Assembly (NCBI GenBank): GCA_964016885.1 | Contig: OZ024740.1 | Span: 4,712,001-4,776,000 of the forward strand | Source: Eledone cirrhosa | Lineage: Eukaryota | Direction of reading: 5' to 3' | DNA: 64,000 nucleotides | Shown here: positions 54,357-54,805 of the stretch, one piece after another | Position numbering within the stretch: the stretch's first letter is position 1 | Layout of the letters: the number at the start of each line of letters is the position of its first letter | Program-made: the position numbers and the translations under genes | Notes under the pieces: generated by a model | Told to the model about the DNA's origin: nothing | The model's input: only the letters and a program-made list of their open reading frames with translations | The model's database searches: none

Positions 54357-54799
54357 ATTAGGATTGGTGCTCTTTCGCCGAAAAGAAGTAAGTGACATAG
54401 TCACTACTTTAAAACTGATAGCGTAAGGTCTTCAAAATGTTTTTAATTAAGCATACGGTATATTGCCACATATACTATACATACATTCACGTATACATCG
54501 CTATTTCAGAGCACCAATCGTAATACCTAATTTTTGCTGGACCGGCAATTGCTCTGTATAATCAGTTCCTGGTTATTTCTGGAATTCTATAAGAATCCAG
54601 CTTCTATAATTTTCGGCGGAAGAGGGCAGTACGAAGCTCTGATGATTGCCAACAACGAGAAACAGACTGTTAGCTTCTCTCCCTTCTTTCGCCGAAAAGA
54701 AGTAAGTGACATAGTCACTACTTTAAAACTGATAGCGTAAGGTCTTCAAAATGTTTTTAATTAAACATACGGTATATTGCCAAATATACTATATATACA

Positions 54800-54805
<6 letters not shown>
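54357..54805 (+). mobile_element. 314-bp-period hammerhead-bearing mini-element
   Basis: 54372-54490 repeated at 54686-54804; 5' inversion 54357-54373 of 54508-54524; TA flanks. Confidence 0.8.
54633..54677 (+). ncRNA. Type I hammerhead
   Basis: GAAGCT-CTGATGA-TTG ccaacaa CGA-GAAACA gac TGTT-AGCTTC. Confidence 0.82.

Follow-up and report, generated by a model that had tools for sequence, protein, structure and literature searches.

The 449 bases at positions 54357-54805 of the analyzed DNA (64 kb in all, in the following called the window) are protein-free and, as judged from their sequence organization, are most likely a real non-autonomous insertion of the Penelope-like element (PLE) type that works like a non-LTR retrozyme. 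The element, which is built on a unit of 314 nt and appears to carry the end signal of Hydra-clade PLEs, probably entered its (TA)n microsatellite through the reverse transcriptase-endonuclease of such a PLE acting in trans. The class of element is already known, and what is added here is a clue to which enzyme likely moves such a parasite.

Anatomy and Flanks of the 314-nt Element

The direct part of the element measures 433 nt, corresponding to 1.38 units of 314 nt, which bears out the period and the approximately 1.4 units of the original prediction. Its ends are redundant: the 5' copy (pseudo-LTR, 54371-54489, + strand) aligns with the 3' copy (54685-54803, +) at an offset of 314 with 116 of 119 positions identical, the mismatches lying at 54451, 54469, and 54480. 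One full unit with 37% GC is present at 54490-54803 (+) and is predicted to be highly self-paired as a circle. No long ORF was found in the unit, the longest ATG ORF comprising 41 codons and the longest stop-free frame 69 codons. The last uniquely assignable base at the 3' end is 54803, which lies 132 nt past the predicted hammerhead cut, and the 5' direct copy begins 13-16 nt downstream of the point corresponding to this cut.

The direct part is preceded by an inverted piece of 17 nt (54357-54373, - strand), which is the reverse complement of 54508-54524 with 16 of 17 matches (17 of 18 if 54356 is added). Since the best of 3000 shuffles reached 14/17, the predicted 5' inversion is upheld. A microhomology of 3 nt (TCT, 54371-54373) joins the inverted and the direct copies as a sequence overlap. 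Alternatively, the inversion can be read as the reverse complement of two pieces, 54526-54531 and 54508-54518, separated by a deletion of 7 nt; this would shift the end of the inverted copy to 54531. This end lies 27-36 nt past the end of the direct copy, or 42 nt on the alternative reading, as seen in one copy only; the inverted piece derives from just 3' of where the direct copy stops.

The element is flanked on both sides by (TA)n, within which a target-site duplication cannot be discerned. The left tract (54338-54358) is common to the 3' end of the neighboring 467-nt element and is likely part of the target microsatellite, while the right one extends over 54803-54851. The two elements do adjoin each other across a short TA tract, as had been noted, and the 314-nt sequence is indeed unrelated to the 467-nt unit, the score of their comparison being reached by 137 of 1000 shuffles. 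A local duplication at the DNA level or an assembly artefact near the microsatellites is very improbable as the origin of this arrangement, although microsatellite-rich sequence is hard to assemble and complex PLE structures are described to trouble assemblies: the two ends differ at three sites and the inversion at one, and the same succession of TA, inversion, partial tandem, and TA recurs in unrelated nearby inserts.

Hammerhead Motif

A single type I hammerhead motif was identified by descriptor and fold at 54633-54677 (+), outside the repeated ends of the element. It is placed at the tip of a long stem extending helix I (54610-54698, +; z -5.2 for the folded segment 54606-54702) and is predicted to cut after U 54671 (GUU). 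The core is complete, with C3 at 54639 and GAAA at 54659-54662, and helix I consists of six Watson-Crick pairs; among 20000 shuffled units the descriptor found one match when at least four pairs were demanded in helix I and none when at least six were. Helix II is weak, comprising just three pairs (U-A, U.G, G-C) and being closed by U-A, and the active fold is 5.6 kcal/mol less stable than the minimum-energy fold. Rfam yielded no hammerhead match in the 314-nt element at E<=10 and 0 matches across the window at the gathering threshold, while both hammerheads of the 467-nt neighbor are matched below gathering (HH9, 37.7 bits). The original description of one well-formed hammerhead with a 6-bp helix I is therefore correct for the single motif, its core, and its helix I, but too favorable with regard to the weak, U-A-closed helix II and the lacking Rfam match.

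In the published table of Hydra hammerheads, as far as covered, helix III measures 9 nt in 19 of 25 families, and the core is followed by TGCC in 9 of 25 (own counts); the 314-nt element agrees in both features, its helix III being a 9-nt quasi-palindrome. A U-A pair at the base of helix II occurs in none of these 25 hammerheads and in none of the 16 hammerhead rows of the PLE loci fetched here. By computation, helix III could pair between two copies of the motif (-6.9 kcal/mol). A dimer mode has been proposed for the hammerheads of PLEs (PMC4209133), and dimer cleavage of hammerheads is ascribed to Lunse et al. (as cited in PMC6765202). A copy with one hammerhead would not by itself release a monomer.

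A Junction Stem Shared With Hydra-Type PLE Loci

The junction signal of the element (54490-54514, +) consists of TATA, 4 nt, and the stem GCTA-TTTCA-GAGC-AC (54500-54514), and resembles the ends of Hydra-type PLEs. The 12-mer at 54490 has a single match of at least 11/12 on both strands of the 64 kb, namely at the junction of a local PLE (46442); the stems themselves read GCTA...GAGCAC in the 314-nt element and GCAC...GAGCAAC in the local PLE. The idea that the shared 12-mer is specific to one family was given up, because the same TATA-N4-GC spacing was found across unrelated loci. In a stretch of 40 nt, the expected number of exact AGAGCAC occurrences is 0.0014, and visual inspection revealed a GCT...GAGCAC stem beyond the end of three out of six published consensus sequences (Hydra-2_Amil, Hydra-1_Ajap, and Hydra-2_Ajap).

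The stem pattern was fixed before nine related PLE loci (L001-L009) were fetched. These come from five bacterial assemblies of GTDB and are not fully independent; as animal-type PLEs with hammerheads and (TA)n tracts, they likely represent host DNA contamination of the bacterial assemblies. The strict pattern was present at the PLE ends of five of the nine loci, and seven of nine carry it if the compensatory GCAC/GTGC form or looser variants are included. Two loci show GCAC...GTGC-AC, which is a change on both sides of one pair, and the other two lack the region. In four of eight junction rows the template has the motif 4-6 nt after the last base common with the TA tract, the remaining four being accounted for by another element, by variation in TA length, or by truncation at the 5' end. 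The elements common to the alignment of the fetched loci are TATA, about 4 nt, GCT, and then GAGCAC, and three loci contain two motifs each. A conserved GCTC...GAGC-AC stem with an inner hairpin was observed at L001:837-919, L002:2580-2710, L004, L006:7094, L007:2953 and 5382, and L008:1335-1416. As judged from its position and conservation, this stem may be regarded as a candidate reverse-transcription start signal. It was not found described in the literature searched, and the covered main text of Craig et al. mentions neither GAGCAC nor a hairpin or stem-loop.

The version of this signal in the 314-nt element is a reduced one, with only 3/4 of its stem paired and without the inner hairpin. 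Its junction lies strictly 10 nt before the stem, and 4 nt before it only if the TATA of the target is counted as paired primer. Note that the pattern was partly shaped on the 314-nt element itself, which renders its rate of 16/20000 among shuffles post hoc. No significant overall nucleotide homology exists between the 314-nt element and the pseudo-LTR of the local PLE (338/1000 shuffles; 89-98/5000 in an anchored test), and none overall between the element and L001-L009. A short stretch of the hammerhead, GAAAC-AGACT-GT, is identical between the 314-nt element and locus L005. The hammerhead of L006, in turn, is identical to that of the published Hydra-2_aMil.

The shared signals bear on the question whether the element is just a fragment of an autonomous PLE, truncated at the 5' end or deleted internally, that was copied once, rather than a member of an independent family of mini-elements. 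The pseudo-LTRs of PLEs carry the same hammerhead and end signals, and a second copy of the 314-nt element was found neither in the 64-kb window nor in phages or GTDB (the latter searched by exact 28-mer), leaving just one copy seen. This origin is nevertheless quite unlikely, since a 314-nt period has no room for an ORF, and since the junction stem gives way to the hammerhead stem here, whereas in autonomous loci the ORF begins within about 50-130 nt after it. Moreover, the unit is also structured outside the hammerhead stem (z -4.0).

A Decayed Hydra-Clade PLE in the Vicinity

A decayed full-length PLE of 4.4 kb (46031-50434, +), located between TA tracts about 4 kb from the 314-nt element, represents a candidate for the kind of helper required and was assigned by architecture, motifs, and colinearity. 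It follows the same TA-inversion-partial tandem-TA architecture in a protein-coding PLE, being composed of TA, a 5' inversion of 100 nt, a direct pseudo-LTR of about 300 nt, a broken ORF, and TA. The broken ORF for reverse transcriptase (RT) and GIY-YIG endonuclease begins at 46495, and a hammerhead remnant is located near 50106. The encoded fragments carry the Hydra marks RWK, DKT, CxCX5C, and CxxC, and a search with one fragment retrieved 1976 relatives at E<=0.001, five long ones of which align colinearly over 46495-48817. A further lead came from an atlas, where GIY-YIG is annotated on 31% of one cluster. Pfam recognized 0 relevant families in six fragments and gave one sub-threshold GIY-YIG match among ten of the relatives, and word-indexed protein searches and a PDB search with the PLE returned no match. 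The assignment to the Hydra clade therefore rests on the motifs, the atlas lead, and the colinearity. The copy is broken and could not be the present-day helper.

Some further features of this PLE were recorded. Its 5' direct copy starts within about 4 nt of the best-guess cut of its hammerhead remnant, and its 3' UTR contains an internal duplication. A second fragment of a Hydra-type GIY-YIG endonuclease (20210-20653, -), 36% identical to that of the 4.4-kb element, abuts another TA tract.

Proposed Mode of Insertion

PLE insertions are known for partial tandems or pseudo-LTRs, an adjacent inverted 5'-truncated copy, a tail of 30-40 bp, and (TA)n targets (PMC8557442, PMC3846280, PMC8969392). 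A PLE protein studied in vitro nicks both strands of AT-rich DNA and initiates at two internal RNA sites bounding the tail; hammerhead cutting is not needed for this reaction, uncut RNA being the main substrate (PMC11167929). Applied to the 314-nt element, this would mean that a source array is transcribed to a more-than-unit RNA, which would be cut by the hammerhead, probably as a dimer, and might circularize. The PLE protein would then bind the GCT(C/A)...GAGCAC stem and nick both (TA)n strands, one of which would pair with GUAUA just before the stem and prime internally. This first strand would be extended over 433 nt, passing one uncut hammerhead, while the other strand would prime about 35 nt further 3' and yield just 17 nt, the short inverted product being joined to the direct copy via the TCT microhomology. 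The anatomy can be read from the sequence, whereas we infer the steps of binding, nicking, priming, and cleavage from it. The priming offset of about 35 nt compares with a distance of 62-65 nt between the paired motifs of the fetched loci, and offsets between the ends are not constant among the window's other inserts, amounting to -72, -127, about +59, and about 66.

The origin by reverse transcription of a more-than-unit template, as originally suggested, is in keeping with the periodic unit, the strong circular fold, and the derivation of the inverted piece from just 3' of the direct end, but a circle is not favored over a self-cleaved tandem transcript. It is possible, if somewhat doubtful, that the same helper used a covalently closed 314-nt circle that was read 1.38 times round. 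The circular unit folds with -84.5 kcal/mol and a z of -6.8, a value equaled by 0 of 150 shuffles and well separated from 14 other 314-nt stretches folded as background (z -2.6 to +2.3), yet its linear folding stability looks the same. The long stem would, according to the predicted fold, hold both ends of a cut monomer together, and circular forms are known to accumulate for animal retrozymes 170-400 nt in size (PMC7229834), whereas the main PLE substrate in vitro is the uncut RNA (PMC11167929). The divergence of the ends (3/119) resembles that in the local PLE (4/301, p 0.41), which may be mere age. The direct copy stops 13-16 nt past the cut position, which would occur by chance in about 5% of cases, a stall in the GC-rich stem being the alternative; because of this stop, a tandem transcript opened by the upstream hammerhead is slightly favored over the circle as template. 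The original prediction, which did not identify the arrangement as the PLE insertion signature, had proposed to look for circularly permuted ends and had regarded fixed ends as refuting. This test is mis-aimed: initiation by the PLE reverse transcriptase takes place at fixed sites within the RNA (PMC11167929), so that even a circle should give rise to fixed 3' ends, and these would not speak against the idea.

The enzyme might instead belong to another (TA)n-targeting PLE clade (Neptune or Naiad) or to a LINE acting by twin priming, in which case the Hydra-like stem would be fortuitous or vestigial. We regard this as unlikely. Naiads, as far as their description is covered, share the (TA)n target and likewise produce inversions and tails, but they lack canonical hammerheads. 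A LINE remnant coding for RT and endonuclease is present at 13.8-17.1 kb, while the 314-nt element has no A-rich tail. In twin priming of the L1 type, the inverted piece derives from just 5' of the direct piece; that of the 314-nt element comes from 3' of the end of the direct copy, opposite to the L1 geometry. The 467-nt neighbor shares the architecture without having the motif, which would fit another mover, whereas the combination of a Hydra-type helix III with the motif at the spacing of Hydra-type loci in the 314-nt element argues for the Hydra-clade enzyme.

Relation to Known Elements and Implications

The following comparisons refer to the covered portions of the cited papers. Short animal hammerhead repeats have been described as non-LTR retrozymes, whose RNAs are circular and for which PLEs were put forward as helpers (PMC7229834), and retrozymes have been proposed to be non-autonomous PLE derivatives (bioRxiv 10.64898/2026.07.22.740005; PMC7229834). 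The Xenopus retrozymes were tied to PLE pseudo-LTRs in a comparison limited to Xenopus, and one of nine predicted retrozyme dimers was cleaved in vitro (bioRxiv 10.64898/2026.07.22.740005). The 314-nt element shares with the non-LTR retrozymes (Cervera and de la Pena 2020, PMC7229834; Li, Clavereau and Pollet 2026) the type I hammerhead, a unit within 150-450 bp, a GC content below 50%, the lack of an ORF, a predicted self-paired circle, and the co-occurrence with PLEs. However, these retrozymes form arrays, whereas the 314-nt locus consists of 1.38 units with one hammerhead and shows a 5' inversion, a tail offset, and a clade-specific end signal, none of which was found in the covered portions of the retrozyme papers. 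With one hammerhead at its locus instead of two, the element is not classed as an active retrozyme array. Plant LTR retrozymes differ in containing a type III hammerhead in LTRs of about 350 bp with PBS, PPT, and a 4-bp TSD, as opposed to the type I hammerhead outside the repeated ends observed here.

The likeness to Hydra-clade PLEs (Craig et al. 2021, PMC8557442) extends to the (TA)n target, the partial tandem, the 5' inversion, the GCT...GAGCAC stem beyond the end, the 9-nt helix III, and the predicted cut after GU(U/A/C), and the 3' end lies 132 nt past the cut, compared to 30-355 nt in 24 published families. In contrast to these PLEs, the 314-nt element has no RT or endonuclease ORF, its unit amounts to 314 nt instead of 2-3 kb, its stem is shortened, and its helix II has U-A as the closing pair, where the PLEs have U.U, G-C, or G.U. 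Among the Chlamys elements, non-autonomous ones such as MRC1 (PMC8557442) are likewise short non-coding dependants of PLEs with pseudo-LTRs and head-to-tail insertions, but they belong to a green-algal clade and mostly lack hammerheads. Their 3' ends are as a rule similar to those of the helper, whereas the 314-nt element shares only short signals. The mechanism considered above is taken from Poseidon PAc of Anolis with its both-strand nicking and two internal start sites (Frangieh et al. 2024, PMC11167929), an autonomous element of another clade that initiates in an AC-rich stem-loop, and would apply to the 314-nt element by analogy. A Hydra-dependent mini-element was not found in the literature searched; Repbase, subscription papers, and supplements may hold such a family.

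The element touches on two questions, namely the identity of the enzyme that mobilizes animal retrozymes and the way in which PLEs select internal start sites and generate tails and inversions. Should the shared stem prove to be the start signal, the 314-nt RNA together with a Hydra-clade protein makes both questions directly testable in the available in vitro assay, and the motif could serve to link orphan hammerhead repeats with the clade of their helper on the basis of sequence only. A more far-reaching interpretation, which we put forward tentatively and to which we give somewhat less than an even chance, would see in the element a self-cleaving circular RNA parasite of viroid size, which has acquired from Hydra-clade PLEs the signal for starting reverse transcription. 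In that case, the stem 4-6 nt after TATA would represent a covarying cis element not described before and common to the whole clade, by which the insertion ends are fixed and the tail is explained, and the 314-nt unit would be a natural minimal substrate for proving the mobilizing enzyme.

Other Elements in the Window

The 467-nt-period neighbor (53428-54340, +), defined by repeat, hammerhead, and fold analysis, contains two intact hammerheads with a palindromic 6-nt helix III and a 5' inversion of 13 nt, but no Hydra-type stem. With a circular fold at z -12, it may be the better candidate for a circle than the 314-nt element. Because its ends are identical (0/434 differences, compared to 3/119 in the 314-nt element; p 0.01), it probably landed later in the same microsatellite; the same difference disfavors a single compound insertion of both elements.

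The host genome is animal-like and rich in microsatellites, and several further inserts of the window are associated with TA tracts. A palindromic TA-flanked insert at 51441-51990 has one hammerhead per strand (51812, +, and 51694, -) and an extension of about 59 nt on one arm. Two related long hairpin inserts beside TA tracts (53012-53367 and 55009-55139), in which no hammerhead was found, are accompanied by a third remnant near 8183-8220, the first of them showing a one-sided extension of about 66 nt. A TA-flanked partial tandem with a period of 605 is located at 22031-22868, with ends identical in 100 of 102 positions and a possible decayed hammerhead core near 22326. Additional hammerhead cores with a GUU cut triplet occur at 21338 (+), 21921 (-), and 52810 (+), two of which close helix II with U.U, and the segment 52815-52875 has a related counterpart at 54853-54916, on the opposite strand.

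The LINE mentioned above is broken and contains endonuclease and RVT_1 domains (13828-17069, +), and further remnants lie near 27.9-28.3 kb (-) and 43.6-44.0 kb. Finally, the window contains a (CAC)n-type repeat array of about 6.4 kb (32626-39027) and an array of a 9-nt unit of more than 5.3 kb (58660-64000), which runs off the end of the window.
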